From: Gammaproteobacteria bacterium
GTDB lineage: Bacteria > Pseudomonadota > Gammaproteobacteria > Steroidobacterales > Rariloculaceae
Length of the DNA: 64,000 nucleotides
NCBI GenBank assembly: GCA_036396795.1
Contig: DASWKF010000084.1
Span: 71,002 to 135,001, forward strand
Reading direction: 5' to 3'
Positions 1 through 43,883 of this stretch are shown one piece after another. Below the pieces are notes generated by a model. The model had not been told where the DNA came from, ran no database searches, and saw nothing but the letters and a program-made list of their open reading frames with translations. The position numbers and the translations under genes were made by a program. The first letter of the stretch is position 1; every line of letters starts with the position of its first letter.

Positions 1-788
1 CGGAAGTGGAAGACCTGCGCTCGATTGCGCAGCTGAGGTTCGCGGAAGAGCTGAGCCCGCAGGTTTTCGATGGCTACGTCGAGGTGGACGGGCGCGGCAT
101 TTACCAGCTCAGGCGTCTGCCCGCCGAAGACGACCCGCAGTATTTCCGCAGCCAGCGAGTCCGCGAGCGCGAGCACGTTTTCATCGATACGCTCAACCAG
201 CACTATGCCGACTTCTACCAGGACGCAGGTGATTCCTACGACGGTTGGCGCGAGTATGCCCGCGAGGAAGCCATCTCGATTCGCGAGCTGCAGCGTTCGT
301 CGCGCTGGCGAACGGGGATGGGTATTGCGACGATCGTCGCCTCGGTGTTGTATGGCGCCAATAGCGACGGTCAATTCAGCGACAGGATCGTTCGCGACAC
401 CTTGATGTACATGGGTATGGATCTCATCAGGACGGCGCGCGTGCGCCGCGAGGAGAAGCGGCTCCACGCCGAGGCGCTCGAGGAGTTGTCCGCGAGTTTC
501 GACGAAGAAGTCAGACCGTTGGTCGTGGAGATCGAAGGCACTCAGCACCGATTGACCGGCACGGCGGAAATTCAGTACGAGGAATGGCGCGAGCTTCTGC
601 GGCAGCTGTACGAGGCCGAAACCGGATTCACAACAGAGATCGACGTCTATACGGAGGAGCAGGCCGAGACGCTCGAGCCGGACGACGGTCTCGAGACGAC
701 CCCGATCGACGCCGAGGCCTTCGAGGCGGAAGGCGATGCCCAGCAAGCGCCCGCGGACAACTTTGCCGGAGCCACAGCCGGGATCTGA
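1..788 (+). CDS. hypothetical protein, 5' end probably outside the window
   Basis: The frame stays open leftward to position 3; the first listed start is a GTG at 6. No motif recognised. One short hydrophobic stretch (MGIATIVASVLYGA) and an acidic C-terminus. Same strand as the cluster downstream and directly upstream of it. Confidence 0.5.
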   Translation, partial: EVEDLRSIAQLRFAEELSPQVFDGYVEVDGRGIYQLRRLPAEDDPQYFRSQRVREREHVFIDTLNQHYADFYQDAGDSYDGWREYAREEAISIRELQRSSRWRTGMGIATIVASVLYGANSDGQFSDRIVRDTLMYMGMDLIRTARVRREEKRLHAEALEELSASFDEEVRPLVVEIEGTQHRLTGTAEIQYEEWRELLRQLYEAETGFTTEIDVYTEEQAETLEPDDGLETTPIDAEAFEAEGDAQQAPADNFAGATAGI

Positions 789-864
789 TCTCCGGCGGAA
801 ATTCGCGCTGACCGAAAGCTCCGCCCGGCGGCAGCCCGCGTCAGCCCCGCCGGCGCTGCCCCCG

Positions 865-1662
865 ATGATCCACGGCGAGCTGCGACTCACCTCCAAATTG
901 GGCGGCGGCGCGGTCACCGAGGTCTGGCACGCCGTTACGCCGGCAGGCAGCGGCGTCGCGGTAAAGCTGCCCTTGCCCGAATGGGCAGGCCACCCGGGCG
1001 CGGCGAAGCTGGTGGAGCGCGAATGGCGCCATTTGCTCGTGGCGGCGCACCCTGGTGTCGTCCGACCGCTGCATTTGGTCGCGACGGCGCGGGGCCCCGG
1101 GCTGGTCGCCGAGCTCCTCGACGGAGGCGATCTCGTCTCTCTCTGCGGCAGCCATCCGAGGCATTGGGCCAGGGCTTGCCGCCAAATCGCCGCAGCGCTG
1201 AACCATCTCCACGAGCGCGGCATCGTCCATCGAGACGTCAAGCCCGGCAATGTCCTTTTCGATTGCCGCGGTGACGCTAAGCTCATCGACTTGGCGCTAG
1301 CGCAAAGATCGGGCAGCGTCGCAAGCGCGGGCGGCGGCACACCGGCTTACCAGAGCCCGAGCCAGCGAAGCGGCGCTGCTGCCCGCGACGCGGACGACAC
1401 GCACGCTTTTGCGGTGCTGCTCTACGAGCTCTTGACGGGGCGCTTACCCTTCGGCCGGCAGCCGACCTTGGCGGACTTGGAAAGGCGGCCGCCGTCCCCA
1501 ATGAAACTGACGCCGCGGCACGCCGCGGACGCGATGCTGGCGGAGCTCACCAAGCGCGTCGTGGACCTGCTGACGGCTGCGGGGCACCTTGCGGCCGACG
1601 CGATGCCGGCGATCGAGCGGAGCTTAGACGCTATCATTGCCGCTCACGGCCAGGAAGCTTGA
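865..1662 (+). CDS. Hanks-type Ser/Thr protein kinase, catalytic domain only
   Basis: Ordered motifs: Gly-loop LGGGAVTEV, VAVK lysine, catalytic loop HRDVKPGN. DLA replaces DFG and there is no clean APE. ATG 865 lies 10 aa before the Gly-loop; the alternative ATG 736 would overlap the previous gene by 53 nt. Confidence 0.8.
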   Translation: MIHGELRLTSKLGGGAVTEVWHAVTPAGSGVAVKLPLPEWAGHPGAAKLVEREWRHLLVAAHPGVVRPLHLVATARGPGLVAELLDGGDLVSLCGSHPRHWARACRQIAAALNHLHERGIVHRDVKPGNVLFDCRGDAKLIDLALAQRSGSVASAGGGTPAYQSPSQRSGAAARDADDTHAFAVLLYELLTGRLPFGRQPTLADLERRPPSPMKLTPRHAADAMLAELTKRVVDLLTAAGHLAADAMPAIERSLDAIIAAHGQEA

Positions 1663-1666
1663 GAAG

Positions 1667-3181
1667 GTGGAAGAGCGACACGATCGGGATCCGGGGCACG
1701 AAGAAGTCATCGTGCCCGTAAAGGCATCGCAGGCGCCAGCTTCGCCGGCGCCCGTGCTCGAGGGACGGGCGCCGCGCGCGTCACGGTTGCCGCTCATTGC
1801 CGTCGGACTCCTGTTACTGACCCTGGCCGGCGGCGTCTTCTTCGTATTGCCGAATTGGGTGGCTGAGCAGTCTCCGTCTCCCGAGGTTCGCGCCGAGCTC
1901 GAGCCGCCAATCCCGAATGCGCCCGAGGCACCGGCTTTATCGCCGGAGGAGCTCGCGGCGCTGCAGCAGCAGGCCGAATCCCTGCTCGCGGAGCTGCTGA
2001 CGCAGCAGGCTCGTCTGGAAGCGTTTTCGGCTTCCGAATGGGGAGCGGGCGCGTGGACGGAGTATCGAGAATCGTCTCGAGCCGGGGACGATGCCTATCT
2101 CGCGAATGCTTTCCACGATGCCGTGCCGGCGTATTCGCGGGCGCTGGAGCTTGGCGCGCAGTTGCTCGAGAGGTCGACCACGATCGTCGACGCGGCGCTC
2201 GAGGCGGGCCGCGCCGCGCTGGAGGCCGGCAATGCAGCCGTGGCCGCCGAGCAATACGGCCTCGTGCTTGCGATAGACGCCGAGAACAGCGTGGCGCGAG
2301 AGGGTCTGGCGCGGGCGGAGAAGCTTCCCGAGGTGCTGGCTCTGGTGCGTCAGGCCCAAGACGCGCAGCGGGCGGGAGAGCTCGAGCAGGCCGCGCAGCA
2401 CTATCGAGAGGCGCTTGCGATCGATGCCGCTTGGCTACCCGCGAGCAGCGCGCTCGCGGATGTCGAGGAAATGCTTCGCGATCGAGGATTCGAGGCGCAG
2501 ATGTCCCATGGCTTGGCCGCGCTCGCGGCCGAGGACTACGACCGCGCCCACGAGTTCTTCAACGCCGCGCTCGTGATTCGTCCGGGTGCGACCGAGGCCC
2601 TGGACGGGAGCTTGCAGGCTGAGCAGGGGCAGCGGCTCGACCAGATAGCCCTGATCGAGGCGCGAGCGCTCGCGTTCGAACGGCGTGAGCTCTGGAGTCA
2701 GGCCATCGAGCAGTACGAACACGCATTGGAAACGGATACGACGCTGATCTTCGCCCAGCAGGGCCTCACGCGCACGCGAGCCAGGGCCGACTTGGACACG
2801 AAGCTCGGCCATTTGCTCGCGAACCCGAATCTGCTTTTCGACGACGGCGTTCTGGCGGACTCGCGCGAGCTGCTTGCAGAAGCTCGCGCGATCGAGGAAC
2901 GCGGTCAACGCCTCACCGGGCAGATCGAGGAGCTAGGGCGCCTTGTCACGCTCGCTTCGACGCCGGTCACGGTCGAGCTGCGGTCCGACCAGATGACCGA
3001 CGTCATGCTCTATCGCATCGGCGAGCTCGGTGCGTTCGCGGTGACCACCGTGGAGCTCAGGCCGGGAACCTACACCGCAGTCGGCAGCCGCAACGGCTAT
3101 CGGGACGTTCGCGAGACTTTCACCGTGTACCCCGGTCGCGAGCTCGCGCCGATTCGTGTGCAGTGCGTCGAGCCGATTTGA
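1667..3181 (+). CDS. single-pass membrane protein with TPR-like helical repeats and a C-terminal beta-rich (PEGA-like) module
   Basis: TM segment LPLIAVGLLLLTLAGGVFFVL, then Ala/Leu-rich repeat region. C-terminus VTVELRSD...YTAVGSRNGYRDVRETFTV. Start is GTG 1667 (AGGAAG 10 nt upstream) or TTG 1637, which overlaps the kinase stop. Confidence 0.6.
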   Translation: MEERHDRDPGHEEVIVPVKASQAPASPAPVLEGRAPRASRLPLIAVGLLLLTLAGGVFFVLPNWVAEQSPSPEVRAELEPPIPNAPEAPALSPEELAALQQQAESLLAELLTQQARLEAFSASEWGAGAWTEYRESSRAGDDAYLANAFHDAVPAYSRALELGAQLLERSTTIVDAALEAGRAALEAGNAAVAAEQYGLVLAIDAENSVAREGLARAEKLPEVLALVRQAQDAQRAGELEQAAQHYREALAIDAAWLPASSALADVEEMLRDRGFEAQMSHGLAALAAEDYDRAHEFFNAALVIRPGATEALDGSLQAEQGQRLDQIALIEARALAFERRELWSQAIEQYEHALETDTTLIFAQQGLTRTRARADLDTKLGHLLANPNLLFDDGVLADSRELLAEARAIEERGQRLTGQIEELGRLVTLASTPVTVELRSDQMTDVMLYRIGELGAFAVTTVELRPGTYTAVGSRNGYRDVRETFTVYPGRELAPIRVQCVEPI

Positions 3182-5616
3182 TGACGATGAACCCAGATTG
3201 GGTAATCAGGGCCGAGATCGGCGGTGAGTCGAGGTACTTCACGGCGGACTCGTTGCCGATCCTAGTGGGGGCCGATACCCAGGCCGATATTCGCTTGCAG
3301 GGCGTGTCGGGGTCGGTGCAGATCGGCGTGCTGGAAGGCGCATTCTTCGTGCAGGCGGGGCGTGAGACGCGCAACCTGCGCGTCGACGGCGAGCTCGTCC
3401 GCGGCTCCAGGCGCCTCAAGGGCAACGAGGCGATCGCGCTCGACAGCGCGCGGCTGGGCTGCCGTTTGGACGACGAACGGCTGGCCATCACGATCGAAGG
3501 CCAAATCACGGGGGGTGACACGGCCCCGCCCGATCTCGACGAGCTCGCTCGCGAGAGCGACGACTTCGGCGCCGTTGAAATCAAGCCGATCAGCTTTCGT
3601 CCGGCAGCGAGCGCCGCGCCTGGCGAGGGCCGGCGGCGCGCGAGTGCCGCCGGCGTCGGCGTGACGGCTGCTTTCGGCGTGCTCGCTGTGCTCGGCTGGT
3701 TCGCCTTCACCGCGAAGTCCGTCGAGATCATCGTGACGCCTGTGCCCGAGGAGCTTCGCCTGCCCGGCACGCTGTTGAAGCTCAAGCTCACCGACCGTTT
3801 CCTGCTCAGATCGGGGCAGCACCGCGTTGAAGCCGCGTTGGCCGGTTACTATCCGCTGGACACGACCATCGAGGTCGGCCCGGCGCCGGACCAGTCGATC
3901 GGGCTCGAGCTCGAGAGACTACCCGGGCTCGTCACGCTCGCGACGGAACCCGCCGTCGGCGCGGAGGTCCGGCTCGACGGCGATCGGCTCGGAACCACGC
4001 CGTTGCAGGACGTGGAAATCCGACCCGGGAGGCACCGGCTGGAATTCGTCGCCGAACGTTTTCTCGCCGAGGTTCGAGAGCTCGACGTCACTGGCGGCGG
4101 TGAGCGCCAGAGCCTCAACGTGGTGCTGACTCCGAGCTGGGCGCCCGTGAGTTTCAGCAGCGAGCCCGCGGGTGCCGAAGTGCTGGTCGACGGACGCGCG
4201 CTGGGCGTTACGCCGATCGAGCTCGAGCTGACGGCGGGTGAACGGGACGTCGAGCTTCGGCTGCCTGGCTACAACGCTTGGCGCGACACGCTCGTCGTTT
4301 ATGCCGACCAGCCCGAGGTCGTACCGCCGGTCCGCCTGACCCAAGCCGACGGGCGAGTCGAGCTGATTACCGACCCGGCCGGCGCTGTGGTGAGCGTCAA
4401 CGGCGAGTTTCGTGGGCAGACACCGTTGACCTTGCGCCTCGACCCTGGAAGGCAGCATTCGATCAACTTGAGCAAGCCCGGCTACGAGCCGGTCACCGAG
4501 ACACTTTCCGTCGCCGCCGATAGCGGCCGGCGACTGAGTCTGGACCTAGTCGCGCAGCTCGGTGTCGTGGATGTCTCGAGCGAGCCGCCGGGCGCGCAAG
4601 TTTGGGTGGACGGCGAGCGCGCCGGAACGACGCCGCAACAGCTGACGCTGACCGCTCTGCCGCATCGGCTGGAACTACGGCAGGACGGCTACGCGAGCGT
4701 GAGCACAGAGCTCACGCCCAGGCCGGGGTTTCCGCAGGCGTGGGCGGCCGTCCTCGAGCGGCAAGATTCGCTTTCGGGGTCGGGTTATCGCGCATCGATC
4801 GAGACGAGCCTGGGGCAGGCGCTCAGGCTCGTATTGCCGGGAGAGTTCACCATGGGTTCTTCGCGGCGCGAGCAGGGACGCCGCACCAACGAGGTGCTGA
4901 GACCCGTGCGGCTCAGCCGGGCGTTCTATCTGGGCGTGACGGAGGTCAGCAACGCGCAGTTTCGCGCCTTCAGGCCCGATCACGACTCCGGAGACTTTTC
5001 CGGCGTGAGCCTCAACGAGGACGAGCAACCCGTCGTGCGCGTCTCCTGGGAAGAGATCGCGGAGTACTTGAACTGGTTGAGCATCAGGGACGGCCTGCAG
5101 CCCGTCTACGAGGAAGCGAACGGCGCCTGGACCGCAGTGAGGCCTCTACGCAGCGGCTATCGGCTGCCGACCGAGGCGGAATGGGCCTGGGCCGCGCGTT
5201 TCGCCGAGCAGGACGAGCCCCTGGTCTTTCCCTGGGGCGCCGAGCTGCCCCCGCCGGACCGTTTCGGCAACTTCGCGGATCTGTCGGCCGCGCAGCTGCT
5301 GCCGACGACCCTGGTGACTTATAACGACGGTTTCGCGGTTTCCGCGCCCGTAGGCAGCTTCGCCGCCAACGCCGTCGGGATTTTCGATCTGGGCGGAAAT
5401 GTGGCCGAATGGGTTCAGGATTACTATGAGATCGGCCGAAGCGTGACGGACGAGGTCGCCGTCGACCCGCTCGGACCGGAAAGCGGCCGCTTCCGGGTGG
5501 TTCGGGGGTCGAGCTGGCGCAGCGCGACCGTCACGGATCTGCGCAGCGCCGCGAGGAACTACAGTGCCGAAGCGCGAGAAGACGTCGGTTTCAGAGTTGC
5601 CAGAAACCTGGAATGA
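3181..5616 (+). CDS. FHA-like / TM / 5x PEGA / formylglycine-generating-enzyme (SUMF1) domain protein
   Basis: Degenerate FHA-like N-terminus (ILVGADTQADIRLQG...FFVQAG...LRVDGELV). TM segment AAFGVLAVLGWFAFTA. Five PEGA-type repeats, e.g. PAGAEVLVDGRALGVTPIELEL, PAGAVVSVNGEFRGQTPLTL, PPGAQVWVDGERAGTTPQQL. C-terminal FGE-sulfatase motifs RVSWEEIAEYLNWLS, YRLPTEAEWAWAAR, GNVAEWVQDYY, RVVRGSSW. ATG 3181 overlaps the upstream stop (TGATG). Confidence 0.8.
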   Translation: MTMNPDWVIRAEIGGESRYFTADSLPILVGADTQADIRLQGVSGSVQIGVLEGAFFVQAGRETRNLRVDGELVRGSRRLKGNEAIALDSARLGCRLDDERLAITIEGQITGGDTAPPDLDELARESDDFGAVEIKPISFRPAASAAPGEGRRRASAAGVGVTAAFGVLAVLGWFAFTAKSVEIIVTPVPEELRLPGTLLKLKLTDRFLLRSGQHRVEAALAGYYPLDTTIEVGPAPDQSIGLELERLPGLVTLATEPAVGAEVRLDGDRLGTTPLQDVEIRPGRHRLEFVAERFLAEVRELDVTGGGERQSLNVVLTPSWAPVSFSSEPAGAEVLVDGRALGVTPIELELTAGERDVELRLPGYNAWRDTLVVYADQPEVVPPVRLTQADGRVELITDPAGAVVSVNGEFRGQTPLTLRLDPGRQHSINLSKPGYEPVTETLSVAADSGRRLSLDLVAQLGVVDVSSEPPGAQVWVDGERAGTTPQQLTLTALPHRLELRQDGYASVSTELTPRPGFPQAWAAVLERQDSLSGSGYRASIETSLGQALRLVLPGEFTMGSSRREQGRRTNEVLRPVRLSRAFYLGVTEVSNAQFRAFRPDHDSGDFSGVSLNEDEQPVVRVSWEEIAEYLNWLSIRDGLQPVYEEANGAWTAVRPLRSGYRLPTEAEWAWAARFAEQDEPLVFPWGAELPPPDRFGNFADLSAAQLLPTTLVTYNDGFAVSAPVGSFAANAVGIFDLGGNVAEWVQDYYEIGRSVTDEVAVDPLGPESGRFRVVRGSSWRSATVTDLRSAARNYSAEAREDVGFRVARNLE

Positions 5617-5667
5617 TCGGTTGCGAGAGGGGTCTAACATGACGATTTTTTGTCGGAGGCCGCTGGT

Positions 5668-5877
5668 ATGAAACTTACTCGATGGATCGTTGCGGGCGTG
5701 CTGTTCGCGGCCGCCGCGTTCGTTTCCGTGGGCCAGGAGCCCGGATCCGAAAACCCTCCCGCGCGGGATGATTCCACGGAAGCGCCGGCCGATGACGCGC
5801 GCACCTTGGAAGAGATCTTCATTCCCAGCGAGGAGATCGCTGCCGACGAGGAAGTCACCTTCCCGATCGATATTTAG
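5668..5877 (+). CDS. small secreted acidic protein (69 aa)
   Basis: GGAGG 8 nt upstream of ATG 5668. Signal-peptide-like N-terminus MKLTRWIVAGVLFAAAAFVSVG, followed by a Glu/Asp/Pro-rich tail. No family recognised. Confidence 0.5.
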   Translation: MKLTRWIVAGVLFAAAAFVSVGQEPGSENPPARDDSTEAPADDARTLEEIFIPSEEIAADEEVTFPIDI

Positions 5878-5908
5878 CCGGAGCCGACGCCGCGGAGCTC
5901 ACCAGCAC

Positions 5909-6715
5909 ATGAACCGTACGTTCCCAACGGAATTCCTCTATCAAGTGTTCGCCCTGATCATCGCGGTGATCATCGTGCACGCGGTCTATGTGACCGTGGT
6001 CCGCCCGCGAGCGACCGAAGCCCTTGCTGAGCAGACTCTCAGAATCCAGGAGGAGGAGAGCTATACGGTCGAACGCTCTTTGTGGGTGCTGCTCAGGGAC
6101 TATGAGCAGGAAGCCTGTTTCGTGCTGATGATTTGGGCATTCTCGATCATGGGCTTCAAGGGCAGGCAAGCTCTTTCGGAACGATCCCTGCTGCAGCGAG
6201 AGCTGATCCCGGTCCGCGGCGGGGTGAGAATTCTTCCCGAGGATACGCGCGAATACGCGCGCACTATCCAGGCGCTTCCCGATCGCATGCGGGAGATGCT
6301 GTTGCCCAGGGTGTTGCTGTCCTCACTGGAGCGGTTCGGCTCGACGCGCAACGTCCAGGACGTGTCCTCCGTCGCCAATACCCTGTGCGAATCCGAAGGC
6401 GAGAGGTTGGAGTCCGAGCTGTCGATGATCCGCTACATCGCGTGGGCAATTCCTTCCGTGGGGTTCATCGGGACGGTTCGCGGCATCGGCGATGCGCTCG
6501 GGCAGGCCCACCGGGCGGTTGACGGCGACATAACAGGCGTAACTCAGAGCTTGGGCACGGCGTTCAACTCGACCTTCATCGCGCTGCTCATCTCTATCGT
6601 CGTGATGTTCTTGGTGCACCAGCTGCAGTTGCTTCAAGAACGCTTGGTCTTCGACACGCAGACCTACATCGACCACAACCTGATCCGACACATGCAAGCG
6701 CGTGGCGGCCAGTAG
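5909..6715 (+). CDS. MotA/TolQ/ExbB-family proton-channel-like protein (268 aa, MotA-like 4-TM layout)
   Basis: C-terminal signature YIAWAIPSVGFIGTVRGIGDALGQ...LGTAFNSTFIALLISIVVMFLVHQL. N-terminal TM YQVFALIIAVIIVHAVYVTVV, a second TM ACFVLMIWAFSIMGF, and a roughly 90-aa loop before the signature TMs. ATG 5909 chosen; the listed 5690 start gives an Arg/Pro-rich out-of-frame-looking extension overlapping the previous gene. Confidence 0.75.
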   Translation: MNRTFPTEFLYQVFALIIAVIIVHAVYVTVVRPRATEALAEQTLRIQEEESYTVERSLWVLLRDYEQEACFVLMIWAFSIMGFKGRQALSERSLLQRELIPVRGGVRILPEDTREYARTIQALPDRMREMLLPRVLLSSLERFGSTRNVQDVSSVANTLCESEGERLESELSMIRYIAWAIPSVGFIGTVRGIGDALGQAHRAVDGDITGVTQSLGTAFNSTFIALLISIVVMFLVHQLQLLQERLVFDTQTYIDHNLIRHMQARGGQ

Positions 6716-6726
6716 CGGAACCCGCG

Positions 6727-8130
6727 ATGTCGACCATCGCCATCGATCTCAATGACGCAAGTATCGTGGTAGCCGATGCTGCCGGTGTGCGGCTCAGCGA
6801 GCCCGGCTACGCGTTCGTCGACGCTGGGCGGATCGTCACGGGACAGCAGGCGTATGCCAACGCCCGGCTGCATCCGCGACGGAGCGCGAATCGATACTGG
6901 GAACGTTTGAGCCTGGATGCAGGCAGCGCGGGGCTCGACGCCGTCGGAAGCGCGGCGGAGCTTGCGATCGCTCAGCTTCGCTCCCTGTGGGAGCGCGCCG
7001 GCGGCTCGAGCGAGGATGTGCTGGTGATGGCACCGGGCCATTACGACCGCAGCCAACTCGGCATCTTGCTGGGTCTGTTGCAGGAATGCGGTATCGGCGT
7101 GAGCTCGCTGGTCAATCCGGCAGTGGCCGCCGCGGTGCAGCCTTACCGAGGGTGTCAGCTCGTGCACGTCGATGCCGGGCTGCATAGAGTGTCGGTGACG
7201 CCTCTGGAGCAGGGCGACCAGGTCTCGGCTCTGACCGCCAGGTCGATCGACAGCATCGGCCTGGCCGCCATCAGAGACATGCTCGCGAAACGCGTTGCCG
7301 AGCTTTTCGTGCTGGAGACGCGCTTCGACCCGTTTCACAGCGCGGCCAGCGAGCAGCAGGTATACGAGCGTCTACCCGCCTGGCTGACCGAGCTTCGCAG
7401 CTCGAGCGGGAGGCTCGAGCTGCATTTGCCGCGAGAAGACGAGGACTTGAGCGTCGAGGTGGAGCGCGAGCAGTTGTTGGGCGTGACGGCGGGATTCCAC
7501 CGCGCGATCGTGCAGCTGATCGCGCAGGCGCGCGACCCCGGGGAGCGGCTCGTCATCTTGCTGTCCGATCGACTCGCCGAGCTTCCCGGATTGATCAATG
7601 AGCTCGAGCGCCTCGACGACTCCACGGTCGTGCCGCTGGAAGCGGGCGAAGCGGCCGTCGGGGTGGCTCGGCACGCCGCGGCGATCTCCAAGAGGGGCGG
7701 CGAGGTGAGGCTGCTAAAGCGATTGCCGTGGCGAGAGAGCGGCGCGACGGTCAGCCCGAGCCGGGCAGAATCAACCGCCAGGTCGGAGCCCGCGACGAAT
7801 CGCAACGGCCTGGACGACGCCAGCCATGTCGTCTATGGGGGGGTTGCCTACGCGGTGGACGGCACGGGTCTGTTGATCGGCAGAGAGCAATCGGGCGACC
7901 GCGCCACCATCGTCCTCAACGGAGGGCAGGGCGGCGTCTCGCGGGCTCATTGCGAGATCGTCAGGCGCGACGGTGAGCTCAAGCTCGTGGACTTGAGCCG
8001 CTTTGGAACTTTCGTCAACGAGAAGCGCGTCTCGGGCGAGACCGTGCTGCACGTCGCCGACGTGATTCGCATTGGATCCCCGGGAGAGCAGATTCAAGTA
8101 ATACGAATGAGGCACGCTCATGGCTCGTAA
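6727..8130 (+). CDS. Hsp70/actin-fold (ASKHA)-like protein with C-terminal FHA domain
   Basis: N-terminus IAIDLNDASIVVA (compare DnaK IGIDLGTTNS), LVNPAVAAAV (compare NEPTAAAL), VHVDAGLHRVSVT (compare DLGGGT). The C-terminal FHA is canonical: LLIGRE...VSRAHCEIVRRDGELKLVDLSRFGTFVNEKRV. Confidence 0.7.
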   Translation: MSTIAIDLNDASIVVADAAGVRLSEPGYAFVDAGRIVTGQQAYANARLHPRRSANRYWERLSLDAGSAGLDAVGSAAELAIAQLRSLWERAGGSSEDVLVMAPGHYDRSQLGILLGLLQECGIGVSSLVNPAVAAAVQPYRGCQLVHVDAGLHRVSVTPLEQGDQVSALTARSIDSIGLAAIRDMLAKRVAELFVLETRFDPFHSAASEQQVYERLPAWLTELRSSSGRLELHLPREDEDLSVEVEREQLLGVTAGFHRAIVQLIAQARDPGERLVILLSDRLAELPGLINELERLDDSTVVPLEAGEAAVGVARHAAAISKRGGEVRLLKRLPWRESGATVSPSRAESTARSEPATNRNGLDDASHVVYGGVAYAVDGTGLLIGREQSGDRATIVLNGGQGGVSRAHCEIVRRDGELKLVDLSRFGTFVNEKRVSGETVLHVADVIRIGSPGEQIQVIRMRHAHGS

Positions 8131-9211
8131 GCCCGTGAACGTGTTCTCCCTGTCGTTCCTCGACGCGATGACCTGCGGATTCGGCGCGGTGATCCTGTTC
8201 TTCATGATCATCAACGCGAATATCGAGCAACGACGGCTCGTCGTGGTTGACGATCTCGCCGCCGAAGTGGACCGAATGGAGCTCAAGGTGCTTACCGGCC
8301 GCAAGAATCTGGTGCAGCTCAAGGACGATCTGGCCAAGCTCATCGAGCAATGGGCGGTGCTCAGAGGCATGAGGCAGGAGATCATCAACGAGATCCAGCG
8401 CACGGAATCCGAATTCAGCGTCCTGAACGCGGATACCGAGGCACAGAGAGACGCCGTGCAGCAGTTGCGCGCAGACTTGGAGAGGCTCGAGCAGGAGACG
8501 CAGCGACTTCAAGCCGCCAGCATCACGCCGGAAGTCGCGGGGAACCGGATTCGCAGCTTTACCGGTGAGGGGAATCGCCAGTACCTCACGGGTCTGCGCA
8601 TGGGAGGAGAGCACGTCGTCATACTCGTGGATGCTTCCACGAGCATGCTCGACCGAACCATCGTCAACATCATTCGCCGACGCAACATGCCCGTGCAGGC
8701 GCAGATCGACGCGCCCAAGTGGCAACAGGCGGTCAATACGGTGGACTGGCTCACGACTCAGCTCCAACCCGGCACGCAGTTTCAGATCTACGCCTTCAAC
8801 GAAAAGGCGTGGTCCCTGATCGAAGGCACCGACGGTCAGTGGCTCCGCGTCACGGACGGCAGCGAGCTCGAGCAAGCCGTTCAGGCCTTGCGGCGCATGG
8901 CGCCGAAAGGGCCGACGAGCCTGCACGCGGCGTTTGCGAGCCTGAGACCGCTCAATCCGCCGCCTGACAACATCTATCTGCTCGTGGACGGTCTGCCGAC
9001 GATCGGCGAAGTCATGCCGGTAAGAGCGGGCGTGACCGGGCGTGAGCGGATGGGACATTTCAACCGCGCGGTGCGCGATTTGCCGTTCAACGTGCCCGTC
9101 AACATCATTCTGTATGCGATGGAAGGAGACCCGCAGGCGGCGCCGGCCTACTGGTGGCTCGCGCTTCGAACCGGAGGCTCGATGATGGCTCCATCGGAGG
9201 ATTGGCCATGA
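8120..9211 (+). CDS. ExbD/TolR/MotB-like N-terminal TM (buried Asp) + coiled-coil + vWA (MIDAS) protein, paralog 1
   Basis: N-terminus VNVFSLSFLDAMTCGFGAVILFFMII. Heptad-rich stretch (LKVLTGRKNLVQLKDDLAKLIEQ...LRADLERLEQETQRLQ). vWA motifs VVILVDASTSM (DxSxS), KGPTSL, YLLVDGLPT. GAGG 7 nt upstream of ATG 8120; overlaps the upstream gene by 11 nt. Confidence 0.75.
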   Translation: MARKPVNVFSLSFLDAMTCGFGAVILFFMIINANIEQRRLVVVDDLAAEVDRMELKVLTGRKNLVQLKDDLAKLIEQWAVLRGMRQEIINEIQRTESEFSVLNADTEAQRDAVQQLRADLERLEQETQRLQAASITPEVAGNRIRSFTGEGNRQYLTGLRMGGEHVVILVDASTSMLDRTIVNIIRRRNMPVQAQIDAPKWQQAVNTVDWLTTQLQPGTQFQIYAFNEKAWSLIEGTDGQWLRVTDGSELEQAVQALRRMAPKGPTSLHAAFASLRPLNPPPDNIYLLVDGLPTIGEVMPVRAGVTGRERMGHFNRAVRDLPFNVPVNIILYAMEGDPQAAPAYWWLALRTGGSMMAPSEDWP

Positions 9212-10212
9212 GCAAACGTCGCCGAGACCAAGAGAGCATGAACCTGTCGTTCCTCGACGTGATCACTTGCGGTTTCGGCGGAATCATCCTGTTGCTGGTG
9301 ATCATCAAGATCTTCGAGCCGATAAGGCTCGAAGAAAGCCACGACCAGCTCGAAGGTCTCATCGCCAGATATCAGCAGGAACTGAACGAGATCGTCGGAG
9401 AAACGGAGAGCATACGGCGCGAGAGGCTCGCGGCCGTCGAGAACGTGGAGGCCGACGAGGTCCAGGTCACGCAGCTGCAGCAGGAGCTCGTCAGGATCCG
9501 TTCCGAGGTTCTGACCAGTCAGGACAACTCGAGCGTTTCCTCGGAGCTCGTGGGGCGATTGGCGCAGGCCAAGCAGCGGCTCACGGAGGAGATGCAGCGC
9601 TTGCTGGCGAACTACAGGCCCGATCCCGACGACTACATGGTCGGAGGAATCCCCGTCGACAGCGAGTACATCATTTTCATCATCGACACCTCCGGCAGCA
9701 TGCAGCGCTACGCCTGGGACCGGGTACGCAGGCAGATTCGCGAGACCTTGGAGGTCTATCCGCAGGTCAAGGGCATCCAAGTCATGAACGACATGGGTGA
9801 ATACATGTTCAAGAGCTATCGGAACGAGTGGATTCCGGATACGCCCGGACGCAGAGAAGCGATCAACGACGCGCTAGCCGAGTGGAATGCGTTCTCCAAC
9901 TCCAGCCCGCGCGAAGGCATACTGGCCGCGATAGAGACGTTTTATGACCCCGCGAAGAAGATAAGCCTCTACGTCTACAGCGATGATTTCTCCTCCGGCT
10001 CGATCAACGCCGTAGTGCGCGAGGTCGATCGCCGCAACCGGGTCGGCGACGACGGCACGCGCCGTGTGCGGATTCACGCCGTCGCCTTTCCGGTCTACTA
10101 CGAGGTCGCCAACGGCGAGCTTCTCTCGTCGGCTCGTTTTGCGATATTGATGCGCGAGCTGTGTCAGCGCAACGGCGGCACCTTCGTCGCCCTGCCTTCG
10201 CTGCGCAGTTAG
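9208..10212 (+). CDS. ExbD/TolR/MotB-like N-terminal TM (buried Asp) + coiled-coil + vWA protein, paralog 2
   Basis: N-terminus MNLSFLDVITCGFGGIILLLVII, then a coiled-coil stretch (QLEGLIARYQQELNEIVGETESIRRERL...VTQLQQELVRIRSE). vWA motif IIFIIDTSGSM (DxSxS). ATG 9208 overlaps the upstream stop (ATGA). Confidence 0.75.
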   Translation: MSKRRRDQESMNLSFLDVITCGFGGIILLLVIIKIFEPIRLEESHDQLEGLIARYQQELNEIVGETESIRRERLAAVENVEADEVQVTQLQQELVRIRSEVLTSQDNSSVSSELVGRLAQAKQRLTEEMQRLLANYRPDPDDYMVGGIPVDSEYIIFIIDTSGSMQRYAWDRVRRQIRETLEVYPQVKGIQVMNDMGEYMFKSYRNEWIPDTPGRREAINDALAEWNAFSNSSPREGILAAIETFYDPAKKISLYVYSDDFSSGSINAVVREVDRRNRVGDDGTRRVRIHAVAFPVYYEVANGELLSSARFAILMRELCQRNGGTFVALPSLRS

Positions 10213-10329
10213 CCAGAATTCGTCATCTTTCATCCGCAATGGTGCCTGAATCCGCCACGGCCGCGGCTGGGTCGGCGGTTCTAATGACTTTCCGTGCAAT
10301 AGGGCACGGGAAATCAGAGGAGCTTGAAG

Positions 10330-11052
10330 ATGATCAAGAAAATCTTCGCCGTCGGCGTAGCGGGATTGGTACTGTCCAGCAGCGGCTGGACGGCCGAGGT
10401 GAGCCAGTCCTCGACTCAGGAGCGGATTGGTCTCAGCAGCGGAGCCGTCCTCGGCGGCTTGGCCGGTGGGCCGCTGGGGTTGGTCTTCGGCGCCGCTTTC
10501 GGCGGCTGGCTGGGTGACCAGTTTTCCGACGCGCGTCGCGAGCAGGCTGAATCCGAGGCGCGCTGGCGGCAGGCCAGCGAAGAAGCCGCCAATCTGAATG
10601 CGCTCGTGATCGGCGGTGAGCGTGCGCTCGAGCGGCAGAGCTCGGAATACCGCCGGAATCTTGTCGCGATGGAGAGTACCGTACGCGATGCCTTGGATGT
10701 CCAAGTCCTGTTCAAGACCGGAGAGAGCAGCCTGACCGATGAAACCAGGCAAAGGCTCACGCGGCTCGCTGAGCTGTTGTCACGTATGGACGGGATGCTG
10801 GTGCGAATCGAGGGTCACGCAGATGCTCGCGGCGCGCCGGAGCTCAACGAGCAGCTTTCCGTCGAGCGTGCGGTATCCGTCAGGGACATTCTCGTGCGGG
10901 CCGGCGTTCCTGCGGATCGGATCACGACCGATGCGCAAGGCGAGCGGCAAGCCAGCGCCGGCAGCGAGGATGCCGACGGCATGGCCTTCGAGCGCCGGGT
11001 GCAGCTCACGCTGCTGCCGACAGGTGCTGATCGCGCGGTCGCCCGAGAATAG
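10330..11052 (+). CDS. secreted Gly-zipper / coiled-coil / OmpA-family peptidoglycan-binding protein
   Basis: AGGAG 9 nt upstream of ATG 10330. Signal peptide MIKKIFAVGVAGLVLSSSGWTA. Gly-zipper GAVLGGLAGGPLGLVFGAAFGGWLG. OmpA_C motifs VLFKTGESSLTDETRQRL...RIEGHADARGAPELNEQLSVERAVSVRDIL. Confidence 0.85.
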   Translation: MIKKIFAVGVAGLVLSSSGWTAEVSQSSTQERIGLSSGAVLGGLAGGPLGLVFGAAFGGWLGDQFSDARREQAESEARWRQASEEAANLNALVIGGERALERQSSEYRRNLVAMESTVRDALDVQVLFKTGESSLTDETRQRLTRLAELLSRMDGMLVRIEGHADARGAPELNEQLSVERAVSVRDILVRAGVPADRITTDAQGERQASAGSEDADGMAFERRVQLTLLPTGADRAVARE

Positions 11053-11074: not shown

Positions 11075-11104
11075 CGCCGTGCGGTGTTTGCGCGCCGCAC
11101 GGCG
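11075..11104. terminator. GC-rich hairpin between convergent genes (possible bidirectional terminator)
   Basis: CGCCGTGCGG (11075-11084) pairs with CCGCACGGCG (11095-11104) around a 10-nt loop. No clear U-tract. Confidence 0.35.
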
Positions 11105-11116
11105 TCGCGCCGCGGC

Positions 11117-11812
11117 TCAGCATCGTTGCGCTGGCGTCGTTGCCGGCTCGAGCAGCGACGACAAGTCCGGTGCTTCTTCCGCGGTGCCGACGCGGGGGAG
11201 CACGAGCAGCTTCGTACTACCGCAAAATCGCTCGAGCACGCCTGCGGTCTCCACTGCCGGCACGGCAGGGTCGACGGATTCGCTGACGACGATGGCGCGC
11301 AGCGGTATCCCTCTGAGCTCCAGAACCTCTCGCGCCGTGAGCGCATGACTGATGGCGCCCAGATAGCTGCCCGTCACGAGAACGGTCTCGACCTCGAGCA
11401 TGGCGATCCAATCGACAACCGTATGCCGCCGATCGAGCGGTACCATGACGCCGCCGACTCCCTCGATCAGCACGACGCCGGCATGCTCGCGTCCCGAGCT
11501 GAAGTCGAGTAGCGCGTCGAACGGGATCTCGCGATTTTCCCTGGCTGCCGCAAGATCCGGTGACAGCGGCGCCCCGAAGCGCCACGGACTGATGCGATCC
11601 AGATGCGCGTCGTCGATCGGCAGACCGAGGGCGCTCAGCAGTAGACCGGCGTCCGATTCGGCGACCTTGGCGGCGTCGAATCCGGTGATCACGGGTTTGA
11701 TGGCATCGACGCTCACGCCCTGTCGCCGCAATTGGGCAATCAGTGCCCTGGCGAGAAATGTCTTGCCGATGTCCGTGCCGGCGCCGGTAATGAATAGCCT
11801 AGAACCTATCAT
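11117..11812 (-). CDS. bioD: dethiobiotin synthetase
   Basis: FITGAGTDIGKT P-loop, KPV, and LIEGVGGVMVP, collinear with E. coli BioD. Start overlaps the bioF stop by 4 nt. Confidence 0.9.
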   Translation of the reverse strand: MIGSRLFITGAGTDIGKTFLARALIAQLRRQGVSVDAIKPVITGFDAAKVAESDAGLLLSALGLPIDDAHLDRISPWRFGAPLSPDLAAARENREIPFDALLDFSSGREHAGVVLIEGVGGVMVPLDRRHTVVDWIAMLEVETVLVTGSYLGAISHALTAREVLELRGIPLRAIVVSESVDPAVPAVETAGVLERFCGSTKLLVLPRVGTAEEAPDLSSLLEPATTPAQRC

Positions 11813-36311: not shown

Positions 36312-38231
36312 GTGCAGATGCCACTCCGTCGCCGTTCTCTCGGTCTCGTCGTCGTTTGCGCCCTGAAGTTGAGCACATTCGGGGCCGCATACGGCCAAGC
36401 CGACGAGCATGCGTCGCCGGGCACGGTGCAGGATCTCGCCTACGGCAAGGTGCTGTTCCACTATTTTCAAGAGGACTACTTTGCGGCACTGACCCAATTG
36501 CTCACCGCGCAATCGCGCGACGAGTTTCAGCATCATGAGAACGACGCCGAGTTGTTGCTGGGCGGCCTGCATCTGTCCTACGGTCAGCATAGACGTGCCG
36601 GCGAAATCTTCGATCGTTTGCTGGCGGAGTCCGTGGATTCGACCGTGCATGACCGCGCGTGGTTTTTCCTCGCGAAGATCTGGTACCAGCGCGGCTACCT
36701 CGTCGAGTCCGAGCGCGCGCTGAGCCGGATCAGCGGCCATTTGCCCTCCGAGTTGGAGGCCGAACGCCACATTCTCCAAGCGCGCGTGCTCATGGATCAG
36801 CAGCGCTTCGAAGAAGCGCTGGCGTTGCTCAACGCCTGGAGCGCGCCTGCCGATGAATGGGTCGGCTACGCGAAATACAACATCGGCGTCGCGCTGGTTC
36901 GTCTGGATCGCATCGACGAGGGGGCCCGCGTGCTGGACGAAGTCGGCCAAATCGCCTCGGCGAGCGAGAACGTTCGGGGCTTGAGAGATAAGGCCAACGT
37001 CGCCCTGGGCTACGCTTGGCTTCAGGCCCGCAAGCCGGATCAGGCGCGCCCGTCACTGCAACGCGTGCGCCTGCACGGCCCATATTCCAACAAAGCCCTG
37101 CTCGGTGTCGGTTGGTCGGACGCGGAGCTCGGCGACTACCAGGCGGCGTTGACGCCGTGGCTGGAACTGCGGCAGCGAAACGTTCTCGACGCCGCCGTGC
37201 AGGAGTCGCTGCTCGCGGTTCCGTATGCATTCAGCCAGCTAGGAGCGAACAGCCAGGCGGCGGATTACTATTTGAGCGCGATTGAATCGTTCAACAACGA
37301 AATCGCGCGAATGGATGTCGCCATCGCCTCGGTGCACGAAGGGGTATTCGTCGACGACCTGCTCGCCAACCGGGCTACGGATGCCTCGGGCTGGTATTGG
37401 CGGCTCGATCAGATGCCGAATTCCATCGAGAGCCACTACCTCTACGAGCTCGTCGCATCTCACGAGTTTCAGGAAGGCCTGAAGAATTATCGCGATCTAC
37501 TCTACATGCGCGAGAATCTCGATCGCTGGTCGGACAGCCTCGACGCGTTCGACGATATTCTGGACACGCGCCAGCGTGCCTACGTACAGCGGCTTCCGGT
37601 GATCGAGAGAAGCCTGGACGGCGTCGACCTGGGAGAGTTGGCATCGCGTCGCGTTGCCTACGAATCGCGGCTGATGGCGGTCGAGAGTGACGAGAACGTC
37701 TGGGCACTGGGCACGGAGGGCGAGCAGCAGGCTTCGCGCACGCTCGACGAGATGCAGAACAAGTTGGCGCTGCTCGGCGAGCATCCGGCGGCGGCGGAGC
37801 TTCGCGACAAGCATCGTTTTTTGAGGGGGGTTCTGTTGTGGAATCTCCATCGGGACTACAAAGCCCGGCTCTGGCAGGCGAAGAGGAATCTGCAGGTGCT
37901 CGAGCGGGACTTTCGTTCCGCTCAGAGGTCGTACCATCAGGTCGACCAGGCACGGGAAGAGTGGCCTGAGAAGTTCGCCGCGCTCAGCCGTCGGATCGGG
38001 GATCTCGCCCCCAGAGTCCGGACGCTCGAGGCCCGTCTTGGAACGGCTCTGGAGCAGCAGTCGCTGTACCTGAAAGCCCTGGCGAGGCGGGAGTTGCAGG
38101 CGCAACGTGACCGCTTGTCGACCTATCTCGTGCAGGCGCGGTTCGCACTGGCGTCGGTCTACGATCGCTCCACCGCCCTGTCCTCGAGTAGCGCGCCCGC
38201 GAATCGGACGCTCATCGAGGAGCTGCCGTGA
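36312..38231 (+). CDS. secreted TPR plus coiled-coil protein (639 aa)
   Basis: Signal peptide LGLVVVCALKLSTFGAAYG, TPR-like helices in the N-terminal half, and a long heptad-rich C-terminal half. Confidence 0.7.
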   Translation: MQMPLRRRSLGLVVVCALKLSTFGAAYGQADEHASPGTVQDLAYGKVLFHYFQEDYFAALTQLLTAQSRDEFQHHENDAELLLGGLHLSYGQHRRAGEIFDRLLAESVDSTVHDRAWFFLAKIWYQRGYLVESERALSRISGHLPSELEAERHILQARVLMDQQRFEEALALLNAWSAPADEWVGYAKYNIGVALVRLDRIDEGARVLDEVGQIASASENVRGLRDKANVALGYAWLQARKPDQARPSLQRVRLHGPYSNKALLGVGWSDAELGDYQAALTPWLELRQRNVLDAAVQESLLAVPYAFSQLGANSQAADYYLSAIESFNNEIARMDVAIASVHEGVFVDDLLANRATDASGWYWRLDQMPNSIESHYLYELVASHEFQEGLKNYRDLLYMRENLDRWSDSLDAFDDILDTRQRAYVQRLPVIERSLDGVDLGELASRRVAYESRLMAVESDENVWALGTEGEQQASRTLDEMQNKLALLGEHPAAAELRDKHRFLRGVLLWNLHRDYKARLWQAKRNLQVLERDFRSAQRSYHQVDQAREEWPEKFAALSRRIGDLAPRVRTLEARLGTALEQQSLYLKALARRELQAQRDRLSTYLVQARFALASVYDRSTALSSSSAPANRTLIEELP

Positions 38232-41056: not shown

Positions 41057-41723
41057 CCCCCCGGATATCGGGTGGACGTCAGCGGCGGCTTACCGCGCCG
41101 CGCTGCTCGTGCTGGTGCTCGCCGCCAGCGCATGCTCGTCGCCGGGTCCCGTTCGTCCCGACTCGCCGAACGCGGGGGTGGGCGAGGGCGACGGCTTGGC
41201 GACCGTGGTTCCCGCACCCACGCAGGCGGCGTACGACCGCGCGCTGCAAGCGATGATCGAGGGCGATCTGGTCGAAGCGGAGCTCCAGCTCGAGCAGTTC
41301 GTGTTGGAGTACCCGGCTTTCGCGGGGCCTCACGTCAATCTTGCGATTCTCTACGCTCAAAGCGGCAGAAGCGACGAGGCGGAAGCGGCACTGGGGCGAG
41401 CGCTGGCGATCGATCCGGAGCATCCCGCCGCCAACAACCGGCTCGGCATGCTGCTGCGGCAACAGGGGCGCTTCGCCGAGGCGGAGGCCGCGTACCTCAA
41501 CGCGCTCGAGGTCGACCCCGAGTATGCGCTGGCACATTTGAACCTGGCGATTCTGCTCGACCTCTATCTGCACCGGCCTAGCGAGGCCCTGACGCACTAT
41601 CGGGCGTATCAGGATTCGCTGGCGGAACCCGACACCACCGTCGGGCTATGGATCATCGATTTGCAGCGCCGCCTCGGCGCCAGTGACAGTGAAGCGCGCG
41701 TCGCTCGAGGAGAGGAGCCATGA
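41037..41723 (+). CDS. TPR lipoprotein
   Basis: Lipobox LAASAC. TPR repeats (NLAILYAQSGRSDEAEAALGRALAIDPEHPAANNRLGMLLRQQGRFAEAEAAYLNALEVDPEY). Confidence 0.75.
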   Translation: MLQRFNDPPDIGWTSAAAYRAALLVLVLAASACSSPGPVRPDSPNAGVGEGDGLATVVPAPTQAAYDRALQAMIEGDLVEAELQLEQFVLEYPAFAGPHVNLAILYAQSGRSDEAEAALGRALAIDPEHPAANNRLGMLLRQQGRFAEAEAAYLNALEVDPEYALAHLNLAILLDLYLHRPSEALTHYRAYQDSLAEPDTTVGLWIIDLQRRLGASDSEARVARGEEP

Positions 41724-42154
41724 TTTCCAAGGCCGGTTGCATCGTTTCCGGAATCGTTTCGTTGAGCTTCGGCGCGGCTTTCGCGCAGCCGCCTCAGGGC
41801 GGCGAGACCGCCGCGCCGACGTTGAGCTTCGAGGAGCTCGCGTCGCTGGAGCCCGCCGTCGACACGGCCAACCTGAGCCCGCGCGGGGATGCGCCGCAGG
41901 GCAGCGCTCCGACGTCGGTTGCTTCGAGCCGAGTCGTGGACTCGTTGGATCTGGGAACCACGTCAATAACCGGAAACCAGGAATTGCCTAAGGTTCTATA
42001 TATCGTGCCCTGGAAGCAAGCGGATCTCGGTGATCTCGTCGGCCGTCCAGTGAACACCCTGCTCGACGAGGTGTTGGCGCCGGTGGATCCGGAAGTATTT
42101 GAACGTCAGCTGGGGTACTACGAAGCCCTGCACGCAAAGGATGAAGAGGAGTAA
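41720..42154 (+). CDS. small periplasmic protein (144 aa)
   Basis: Signal peptide IVSGIVSLSFGAAFAQ; conserved-looking ELPKVLYIVPWK. ATGA overlap with the upstream gene. Confidence 0.6.
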   Translation: MISKAGCIVSGIVSLSFGAAFAQPPQGGETAAPTLSFEELASLEPAVDTANLSPRGDAPQGSAPTSVASSRVVDSLDLGTTSITGNQELPKVLYIVPWKQADLGDLVGRPVNTLLDEVLAPVDPEVFERQLGYYEALHAKDEEE

Positions 42155-42159
42155 ATCCA

Positions 42160-42804: not shown

Positions 42805-42822
42805 TCACGGGTTATAGCCAGC

Positions 42823-43329: not shown

Positions 43330-43343
43330 GGGGGGGAGCACGA

Positions 43344-43871: not shown

Positions 43872-43883
43872 GAGCTCGATCTC

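Follow-up and report, generated by a model that had tools for sequence, protein, structure and literature searches.

Bacteria use ion-driven motors of the 5:2 type for flagella and gliding, for nutrient import and type IX secretion, for outer-membrane integrity and for phage defence, and each new coupling partner found for them has shown another route by which energy can travel across the periplasm. An operon at 736–11052 of a 64,000-nucleotide stretch of gammaproteobacterial DNA (Rariloculaceae; GenBank assembly GCA_036396795.1, contig DASWKF010000084.1, positions 71,002 to 135,001; hereafter the window) raises the question of whether such a motor can be built with von Willebrand factor type A (vWA) proteins as its inner subunits. 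The operon places a gene for a MotA/TolQ/ExbB-family channel subunit close to genes for two paralogous vWA proteins, vWA1 and vWA2, each with one transmembrane (TM) helix. A model that had read the letters and their open reading frames (ORFs) without database searches (the sequence-only reading) proposed a new stator-type motor here. Our analysis indicates that the locus probably encodes a trans-envelope, proton-driven motor of the MotA/ExbB/TolQ class, in which a vWA1/vWA2 heterodimer would replace the ExbD/TolR/MotB-type subunits and force would be transduced at the outer membrane in the manner of Tol or Agl.

The channel subunit (5909–6715, plus strand, 268 amino acids) matches the Pfam family MotA_ExbB (PF01618) at 51.8 bits (E 8.9e-14), above the cutoff of 22.9; for comparison, the true ExbB of the window scores 103.6 bits. 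The protein carries an extra N-terminal TM helix and has four hydrophobic segments. Its pore threonines, found in GTVRGIG and AFNST, align with GTIIGL and AMNTT of ExbB and with E. coli TolQ, and they are at least 95% conserved among 57 sequences. Thus, with PF01618 above cutoff and the pore threonines kept, the MotA/ExbB signature claimed from the letters is borne out.

The vWA1 gene (8120–9211) and the vWA2 gene (9208–10212), both on the plus strand, encode proteins with the same layout. Each begins with a short basic cytoplasmic N-terminus, followed by a single N-in TM helix with a buried aspartate (Asp15 in vWA1, SLSFLDAMTCGFGAV; Asp17 in vWA2, NLSFLDVITCGFGG), a long helical stalk of about 95 residues (∼14 nm) and a vWA head whose metal ion-dependent adhesion site (MIDAS) is intact, D171-x-S173-x-S175 in vWA1 and D160-x-S162-x-S164 in vWA2. 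Neither TM sequence (SLSFLDAMTCGFGAVILFF or NLSFLDVITCGFGGIILLL) includes a histidine or an SHLS motif. Across 61 genome loci and 80 metagenome loci the TM motif [SN]L[SA]FLDxxxCGFGA is near-invariant in both paralogues. Residues D15, C19, G20, G22 and D171/S173/S175 of vWA1 are each at least 98% conserved among 116 unique orthologues, as are the TM aspartate and the DxSxS MIDAS motif of vWA2 among 131. In the wider family, 101 of the 102 representatives of 50%-identity clusters that have an intact N-terminus keep the aspartate. The TM helix is also the most conserved segment of these proteins, with a mean top-residue frequency of 0.71 vs 0.54 in the vWA head and 0.27 in the stalk. One would not expect a passive anchor to have a near-invariant buried aspartate in its best conserved segment. 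The sequence-only reading had named conservation of this residue as a check on its proposal, and it proved to be conserved.

Pfam scores for the vWA domain fall under the gathering threshold (22.4 and 21.4 bits; VWA_2 at 2e-4 in vWA1), and a search of the family profile against PDB sequences returned coiled-coil noise only; the fold was therefore shown by an AlphaFold2 (AF2) model and a Foldseek search. The model of vWA2, built on a 46-sequence alignment, has a predicted local distance difference test score (pLDDT) of 87 and consists of a TM helix at 8–35, an unbroken helix at 41–135 (95 residues, ∼14 nm) and a globular domain at 145–330. All top PDB matches of the globular domain are vWA or I-domains at a probability of 1.00, the best being ITIH1, the integrin alpha2 I domain, VWF A3 and the anthrax toxin receptor. 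Given this fold and the motif conservation above, the earlier claim that both paralogues carry a vWA domain with an intact MIDAS stands.

A tblastn search of 144 related loci, including as much as 10 kb of flanking sequence to either side, found no ExbD or TolR gene. The probes were the ExbD proteins of the window itself together with E. coli ExbD and TolR, and their sole matches lie in a separate ExbB-ExbD-ExbD-TonB operon at 42–45 kb of the window.

This kind of arrangement has recently been predicted. A survey of periplasmic force transducers (PMC12204202; Mol Biol Evol 2025, 'Origin and Evolution of Bacterial Periplasmic Force Transducers', section 8, Fig. 4c-d) describes TM-tethered vWA proteins that co-occur tightly with tolQ homologues without tolR or exbD. 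In that account, seeded from Idiomarina loihiensis and covering systems in Proteobacteria with Verrucomicrobia mentioned, the vWA proteins come mostly in heterologous pairs and have a TolR/ExbD-like trans-pore helix with a conserved aspartate and no SHLS/His motif. AlphaFold3 models, in work that is purely in silico, place their TM helices inside a TolQ-like pentamer beside the threonine ring. Because PMC12204202 predicted that vWA proteins replace TolR/ExbD within a TolQ-like pentamer, the central idea is no longer new. The operon examined here agrees with those systems in its heterologous vWA pair beside a tolQ-like gene, the absence of tolR/exbD, the conserved aspartate and threonines, and the lack of SHLS/His. 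It differs in that only motor and vWA genes were described there, while six further conserved partners and the accessory genes described below were not discussed; the text of PMC12204202 holds nothing on PEGA, FGE, FHA, kinase, Hsp70, OmpA, lipoproteins or a small peptide. Among the papers covered by our literature search, no other couples vWA proteins to a MotA/TolQ motor in this way. Judged by its gene content, then, the locus is a variant, with kinase, Hsp70-FHA and OmpA genes added, of this recently predicted kind of machine. The novelty suspected from the letters is largely lost. What is new here is an eight-gene core, its separation from accessory genes, fusion evidence for a heterodimer of the heads, co-variation of kinase and FHA domain, and cultivable Methylophaga hosts.

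Several observations weigh against the motor reading. When the 60-residue N-termini of vWA1 and vWA2 are searched, Pfam ExbD gives no match, even with E values as high as 10 allowed. An hhalign comparison of the vWA TM profile with a four-sequence ExbD/TolR alignment sets aspartate on aspartate with P 0.0019 at a probability of just 14%. The placement of the vWA TM helices inside a MotA-like pentamer is one that we infer, and identity with the family of PMC12204202 rests on a matching description, not on an alignment to the Idiomarina seed. For the accessory proteins treated below, ATPase activity of the Hsp70-like domain is uncertain because its phosphate-binding motif is divergent, and tblastn with one probe, of limited sensitivity, found no PP2C phosphatase. 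Of the earlier statement that the TM helix of each paralogue matches the ExbD/TolR/MotB plug helix, the part on the aspartate therefore stands, while the match to ExbD does not appear in Pfam; the remainder of each protein is a vWA domain with no ExbD fold.

The lack of detectable ExbD homology at the N-termini would suit another explanation, in which the vWA pair are passive membrane-anchored scaffold or adhesion proteins in the manner of BatA/BatB, their conserved TM helices touch some partner outside the channel lumen, and the MotA-like protein either works with an unlinked ExbD/TolR or is a mere channel. Bat operons indeed combine TPR and vWA genes without a motor, and the window does encode ExbD elsewhere (42823–43871). 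Those ExbD genes, however, belong to an ExbB-ExbD-ExbD-TonB operon of their own 32 kb away. Moreover, the TM aspartate is at least 98% conserved in more than 240 sequences beside an invariant CGFGA face, and the MotA-like gene adjoins the vWA pair in every locus examined (61 genome and 25 metagenome loci). Neither a MoxR AAA+ ATPase gene nor a DUF58 gene occurs among the 11 operon genes or their neighbours. We regard a passive scaffold as unlikely.

Evidence on the pairing of the two vWA proteins comes from relatives in which a vWA1-type and a vWA2-type head, 30–59% identical to those of the window, are fused in one chain, in both orders. Five such fusions stand behind a signal peptide (P0166, P0188, P0204, P0207 and P0211; ∼400–470 amino acids) and four behind a BlaR1/M56 membrane domain (P0171, P0219, P0220 and P0227; ∼740–760 amino acids). 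Fusion in both orders is evidence that the two heads are obligate partners, which fits a heterodimer on one stalk as the '2' of a 5:2 motor, and the predicted vWA1/vWA2 heterodimer is thus supported. The fused-head proteins have no Asp-bearing TM helix, and the head pair looks like a portable module that may also be used with drivers other than the MotA-like channel.

The motor genes are part of a larger conserved set. The gene order is lipoprotein (fam5), a second lipoprotein (g0), kinase, TM-TPR protein, TM-PEGA-FGE protein, small peptide, MotA-like channel, Hsp70-FHA protein, vWA1, vWA2 and OmpA-family protein, with the kinase, Hsp70-FHA and OmpA genes present in some lineages only. This order recurs in 61 genome loci and in 25 metagenome loci, which are those with enough upstream sequence out of 80, down to ∼37% vWA1 identity; relatives in the metagenome scan were all at least 46% identical, and other phyla were not covered by it. 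Overlapping junctions likewise occur in these loci and in two Methylophaga genomes. Such recurrence argues that the arrangement is not due to chance, and the synteny on which the sequence-only reading had staked its proposal is present. The TPR, PEGA-FGE, MotA-like, vWA1 and vWA2 genes are each found in 25 of the 25 metagenome loci and g0 in 24, followed by Hsp70-FHA (20/25), kinase (8/25) and OmpA (6/25). By this distribution the strict core is eight genes: those for the two lipoproteins, the TM-TPR protein, the TM-PEGA-FGE protein, the small peptide, the MotA-like channel, vWA1 and vWA2. The sequence-only reading had overlooked the core as such, with lipoproteins, small peptide, TPR and PEGA-FGE proteins as obligate partners. 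In Methylophaga frappieri JAM7 (CP003380.1, L062) we find exactly the eight core genes and none of the three accessories, and M. thiooxydans (JRQD01000001.1, L145) likewise has the core alone. These two species provide cultivable hosts that carry the core, and a two-gene in-silico prediction becomes a defined eight-gene core with named candidate ligands.

The family is large, with 1154 vWA clusters at 50% identity and E ≤ 1e-3 in a HMMER search of 1.8 billion cluster representatives, and the organisms that conserve it are abundant marine Gammaproteobacteria, for the most part uncultured. The operon is flanked by bioF/bioD in the nearer clade and by other housekeeping genes elsewhere, and its GC content matches the surroundings. 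Together with the stable gene order, these flanks and the unremarkable GC content argue for a vertically inherited chromosomal operon and not an island. A separate observation concerns one clade of 16 loci (L034–L054), in which vWA2 is followed, ∼130–250 bp downstream and on the same strand, by genes for a DUF6174 protein and for a reprolysin-like M12 metalloprotease that has an fn3 domain (for example at 12234–14941 of L045); the two genes are absent outside that clade and are either a clade-specific neighbour or an add-on.

What could the motor act on? The two lipoproteins of the core are candidates. The g0 gene is cut by the left edge of the window, where 6–788 (plus strand) encodes the C-terminal 260 of its 448 residues, 100% identical to the full-length protein P0409. 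A lipobox (LAGC) is present in full-length g0 orthologues. Searches of Pfam and PDB returned nothing for g0, and its AF2 model (pLDDT 52) was unusable. The fam5 gene, first in the operon, lies outside the window directly 5' of its position 1 (9111–9986 of L064). Its product is mostly low-complexity sequence, with MPSPSGG-type repeats and Q/S/G-rich stretches in relatives, followed by a conserved acidic C-terminal domain of about 40 residues (DKVARQLCEAATEExDPFLRAALWDEYNEYK). By analogy, it recalls the long disordered tether of LpoA/LpoB. Both proteins have serine at +2 after the lipid-modified cysteine, which under the E. coli sorting rule suggests that they may be placed at the outer membrane.

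The TM-TPR protein (plus strand, from 1637 or 1667 to 3181; TPR_1 1.6e-8, and TPR_2) has a short cytoplasmic N-terminus, a TM helix at 53–71, a periplasmic TPR/helical region and a C-terminal PEGA-like beta-sandwich; the orthologue of locus L040 matches TPR_2 at 7e-11 and PEGA weakly at its C-terminus. The TM-PEGA-FGE protein (3181–5616, plus strand; PEGA 1.4e-49, FGE-sulfatase 3.3e-41) consists of a cytoplasmic degenerate FHA-like domain, a TM helix at about 164–186 (in the numbering of an 817-amino-acid ORF counted from 3163), four PEGA domains and an FGE-like head. A profile of its N-terminal domain matches FHA domains in PDB (Ki-67 FHA, 7.5e-4) while the GR and SxxH motifs for phospho-Thr binding are absent, just as the term degenerate used for it from the letters implies. 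A link between this domain and the Hsp70-FHA gene was considered and ruled out, since PEGA-FGE ORFs of ∼800 amino acids occur in six loci without that gene and ORFs of 684–725 amino acids in twelve loci with it. The FGE-like head has no catalytic cysteine pair, and its C-terminal sequence is RGSSWRSATVTDLRSAARN.

The small secreted peptide (5668–5877, plus strand, 69 amino acids) has a signal peptide, a variable acidic low-complexity linker and a near-invariant C-terminal 20-mer, F[IV]PSExIxADxxVxFPxDI-COOH. It matches no family. It is called as a gene in four loci (L062, L063, L064 and L145), and in 93 of 102 loci the 120 nt directly 5' of the MotA-like gene contain the end of an ORF with the C-terminus [FL]P.[DNS][IF]. 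MIDAS ligand, plug and substrate are the candidate roles for this peptide.

The last of these roles would fit a relative of the type IX secretion system (T9SS) that serves secretion or gliding, with the FGE-like protein as a PorK/GldK ring and the motor driving export or movement, for example export of the small peptide. In T9SS a ring of FGE fold is coupled to the 5:2 motor GldLM/PorLM; here the best NCBIfam match of the FGE-like protein is GldK/PorK (2e-29), and the secreted peptide is strictly co-conserved. At 103 bits, however, this match falls far under the cutoff of 350, the operon has no other Gld or Por domain, and the core contains no homologue of GldL/M/N or Sov and no gene for an outer-membrane barrel. 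Genes for a type I secretion system and a giant adhesin stand beside the operon in M. frappieri, but they are absent in M. thiooxydans and so are incidental. A T9SS-like apparatus is, in our judgement, quite unlikely.

The remaining three genes of the operon are found in part of the family. The kinase (736–1662, plus strand; Pkinase 8.5e-27) is a small, soluble Hanks-type Ser/Thr kinase with the VAVK lysine, an HRDVKPGN loop and a DFG-like DLA motif, and these catalytic motifs are conserved in 21 orthologues. It is present in 24 of the 61 genome loci and 8 of the 25 metagenome loci. The Hsp70-FHA protein (6727–8130, plus strand; FHA 1.1e-13), common in the clade of the window, is cytoplasmic and combines a region resembling the Hsp70 nucleotide-binding domain (NBD; about residues 1–340) with a canonical C-terminal FHA domain (GR...SRAH). 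Pfam finds nothing in the first 340 residues; a profile of 19 orthologues, on the other hand, matches SSB1 (9e-5) and DnaK (0.019) in PDB, which upholds the label Hsp70-like given from the letters. The gene is absent from L029, L030, Methylophaga and 5 of the 25 metagenome loci. In one MAG (L002, 7780–10011) the MotA-like and Hsp70-FHA frames are joined as one 743-amino-acid ORF, be it a natural fusion, a lost stop or an assembly error. The third gene encodes a Gly-zipper and OmpA-family peptidoglycan-binding protein (10330–11052, plus strand; OmpA 5e-17) that is secreted, lacks a lipobox and hence is no lipoprotein. Its Gly-zipper matches are under cutoff, as is its closest NCBIfam model, PdsO (118.6 bits, cutoff 152). 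The OmpA gene occurs in 28 of the 61 genome loci and 6 of the 25 metagenome loci and is absent from Methylophaga.

In the kinase-bearing clade the FHA domain of the Hsp70-FHA protein is canonical (SxxH, with GR in most), and in the clade that lacks the kinase all 24 loci have a degenerate one. This co-variation argues that kinase and FHA domain are functionally linked. By their distribution, kinase, Hsp70-FHA and OmpA are clade-specific add-ons and not defining parts of the system. Two features of the sequence-only reading are consequently not supported as general ones: peptidoglycan anchoring by a separate OmpA protein, in view of the OmpA counts above, and gating by kinase and FHA, given a kinase in 24/61 and 8/25 loci, an Hsp70-FHA protein missing from several lineages and an FHA domain that is degenerate where the kinase is lacking. 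From its stator-type proposal there survives the channel paired with two single-TM, Asp-bearing vWA paralogues without exbD/tolR; OmpA and kinase/FHA as defining parts do not survive.

Kinase and FHA modules also occur in defence systems, and ZorAB is a 5:2 motor too, one with a non-canonical periplasmic/tail architecture. Zorya-type anti-phage defence, in which a MotAB-like motor would sense envelope perturbation and trigger effectors, is another candidate explanation, and the kinase matches the PADLOC models for the PD-T4-6 and MADS6 kinases. Those matches are generic, however. PADLOC returned nothing for the MotA-like, vWA, PEGA-FGE, TPR or Hsp70-FHA proteins, and the OmpA protein matches the peptidoglycan-binding domain of ZorB only. 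Genes for a nuclease or another effector are absent, and the conserved context by bioF/bioD, the stable gene order and a GC content like that of the surroundings also speak against a defence system. We consider this explanation very improbable.

The kinase and FHA protein invite comparison with the Thr-phosphorylation pathway of the type VI secretion system (T6SS; PpkA-Fha1-PppA and TagH), in which a Hanks kinase and an FHA protein jointly control a membrane machine; the FHA domain here weakly matches the TagH model, and PpkA carries a periplasmic vWA domain. In contrast to that pathway, the operon has no T6SS genes, the search for a PP2C phosphatase found none, an Hsp70-like domain is joined to the FHA domain in one protein, and the module occurs in one clade only.

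Among known motors, Tol-Pal shares with the operon a TolQ-family channel with pore threonines, an aspartate in the TM helix of the inner subunit, a periplasm-spanning helix, a TPR protein (compare CpoB) and, in some members, a peptidoglycan binder of the OmpA/Pal type. It differs in having a TolR periplasmic domain, TolA with its SHLS TM helix and the TolB propeller, all of which the operon lacks, and in a channel without the extra N-terminal TM helix; here, moreover, stalk and distal binding head sit on the Asp-bearing subunits themselves. Membership in Tol-Pal is not indicated, as the operon lacks both TolB and any ExbD/TolR domain, none of the partners has a TM helix with histidine, and the OmpA protein is an accessory without a lipobox. 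MotAB/PomAB and ZorAB resemble the operon in a MotA-family channel (5:2 assumed), an N-terminal TM aspartate on the B-type subunit and OmpA-like peptidoglycan anchoring in the system as a whole. Unlike in those motors, the OmpA-like domain is here separate and dispensable, flagellar genes, the ZorA tail and ZorC/D effectors are missing, and the channel is PADLOC-negative.

The gliding motor AglRQS-Glt of Myxococcus (PMC11761067, PMC9946355) offers parallels in architecture for the inner pair and its partners. AglQ and AglS form an inner heterodimer, which is a precedent for the one predicted here (PMC11761067); GltG is an FHA-TM partner with a long periplasmic extension, TPR proteins are present, and the MIDAS-bearing vWA protein CglB serves as terminal binder. 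In GltG the FHA domain directly precedes the TM helix and has been modelled as docked to the AglR pentamer from the cytoplasmic side (PMC11761067). The Glt vWA domain, however, is on an outer-membrane lipoprotein and not on motor subunits, the operon has no Glt outer-membrane barrels, GltI or MglA, and the likeness is one of architecture.

Taken together with these precedents, the parts could work as follows. One vWA1 and one vWA2 TM helix would sit in the MotA-like pentamer, with their aspartates carrying the proton, and proton flow would turn or piston the coiled-coil stalk. The paired MIDAS heads might then hold on to an acidic ligand located close to the peptidoglycan or the outer membrane, for which the invariant C-terminus of the small peptide, the acidic C-terminal domain of fam5, g0 and the FGE-like head are the candidates. 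The PEGA-FGE and TPR proteins may be side-mounted periplasmic partners, as TolA/TonB/GltG and CpoB are for their motors, and the FHA-like domain just before the TM helix of the PEGA-FGE protein would mirror GltG. In the clade of the window, phospho-Thr made by the kinase could recruit the Hsp70-like/FHA protein and so regulate the motor on the cytoplasmic side, and the OmpA-family protein could add an anchor to the peptidoglycan or cell wall. As candidate cellular outputs we name outer-membrane tethering, lipoprotein handling, adhesion and surface movement. Our fullest picture is of a machine of 8 to 11 proteins in which a PMF-driven TolQ-like pentamer rotates a heterodimeric coiled-coil axle whose two MIDAS heads act on lipoproteins, possibly at the outer membrane, or on the secreted peptide, with a kinase-FHA-Hsp70 switch on the cytoplasmic face in one clade. 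Such a machine would stand beside Tol-Pal, Ton, Agl-Glt and T9SS as a new functional sibling that has its own cellular output; this picture is offered tentatively and is less likely than not.

The operon itself is compact. Between 736 and 11052 the window holds nine complete co-oriented plus-strand genes with overlapping or tight junctions, and the truncated g0 gene at 6–788 is the tenth. Ten consecutive genes had been counted within 736–11052 by the sequence-only reading; the overlaps that it listed are all present, but nine genes lie inside that interval and the tenth is the truncated one. Its suspicion that the cluster runs past the left edge was correct. In two contigs that are sequence-identical over the region (L063 and L064), the whole operon comprises 11 genes, with a 291-residue lipoprotein gene (fam5) and the full 448-residue g0 gene 5' of the kinase, and its left boundary is a minus-strand DUF4399 gene. 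The domains expected from the letters (MotA_ExbB, FHA, Pkinase, PEGA, FGE-sulfatase and OmpA) all scored above their Pfam cutoffs. Neighbouring genes overlap by 1–53 nt or stand at most 51 nt apart, save for 117 nt before the OmpA gene. Overlaps join g0 and kinase (53 nt), kinase and TPR (26 nt if the TPR gene starts at TTG 1637), TPR and PEGA-FGE (1 nt, TGATG), Hsp70-FHA and vWA1 (11 nt) and vWA1 and vWA2 (4 nt, ATGA); gaps separate PEGA-FGE from the small peptide (51 nt), the small peptide from the MotA-like gene (31 nt), the latter from Hsp70-FHA (11 nt) and vWA2 from OmpA (117 nt).

The mechanical ORF list over-extends three starts, giving 9154 for 9208, 1637 for 1667 and 10324 for 10330. 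Orthologue N-termini and independent gene calls back the vWA2 start at ATG 9208 and the OmpA start at ATG 10330, and GTG 9154 has no orthologue backing. For the TPR gene the start is ambiguous between 1637 (TTG) and 1667. Downstream of the operon, bioD (11117–11812, minus strand) is convergent with the OmpA gene. Between the two lies a perfect 10-bp inverted repeat at 11075–11104 (CGCCGTGCGG ... CCGCACGGCG, with a 10-nt loop), probably a terminator that they share. A scan for promoter and terminator consensus sequences was uninformative in this high-GC sequence and missed the repeat.

Lastly, the separate TonB-type operon of the window (38228–44855) encodes a large TPR protein (38228–41056), a TPR lipoprotein-like protein (40926–41723), a small secreted protein (41720–42154), ExbB (42160–42804), two ExbD paralogues (42823–43329 and 43344–43871) and TonB (43884–44855). 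The first ExbD has asparagine at the usual position of the TM aspartate (AFMNLMVIL) and the second keeps the aspartate (SLMDIFTIL), and the two could possibly form another heterodimeric inner pair.

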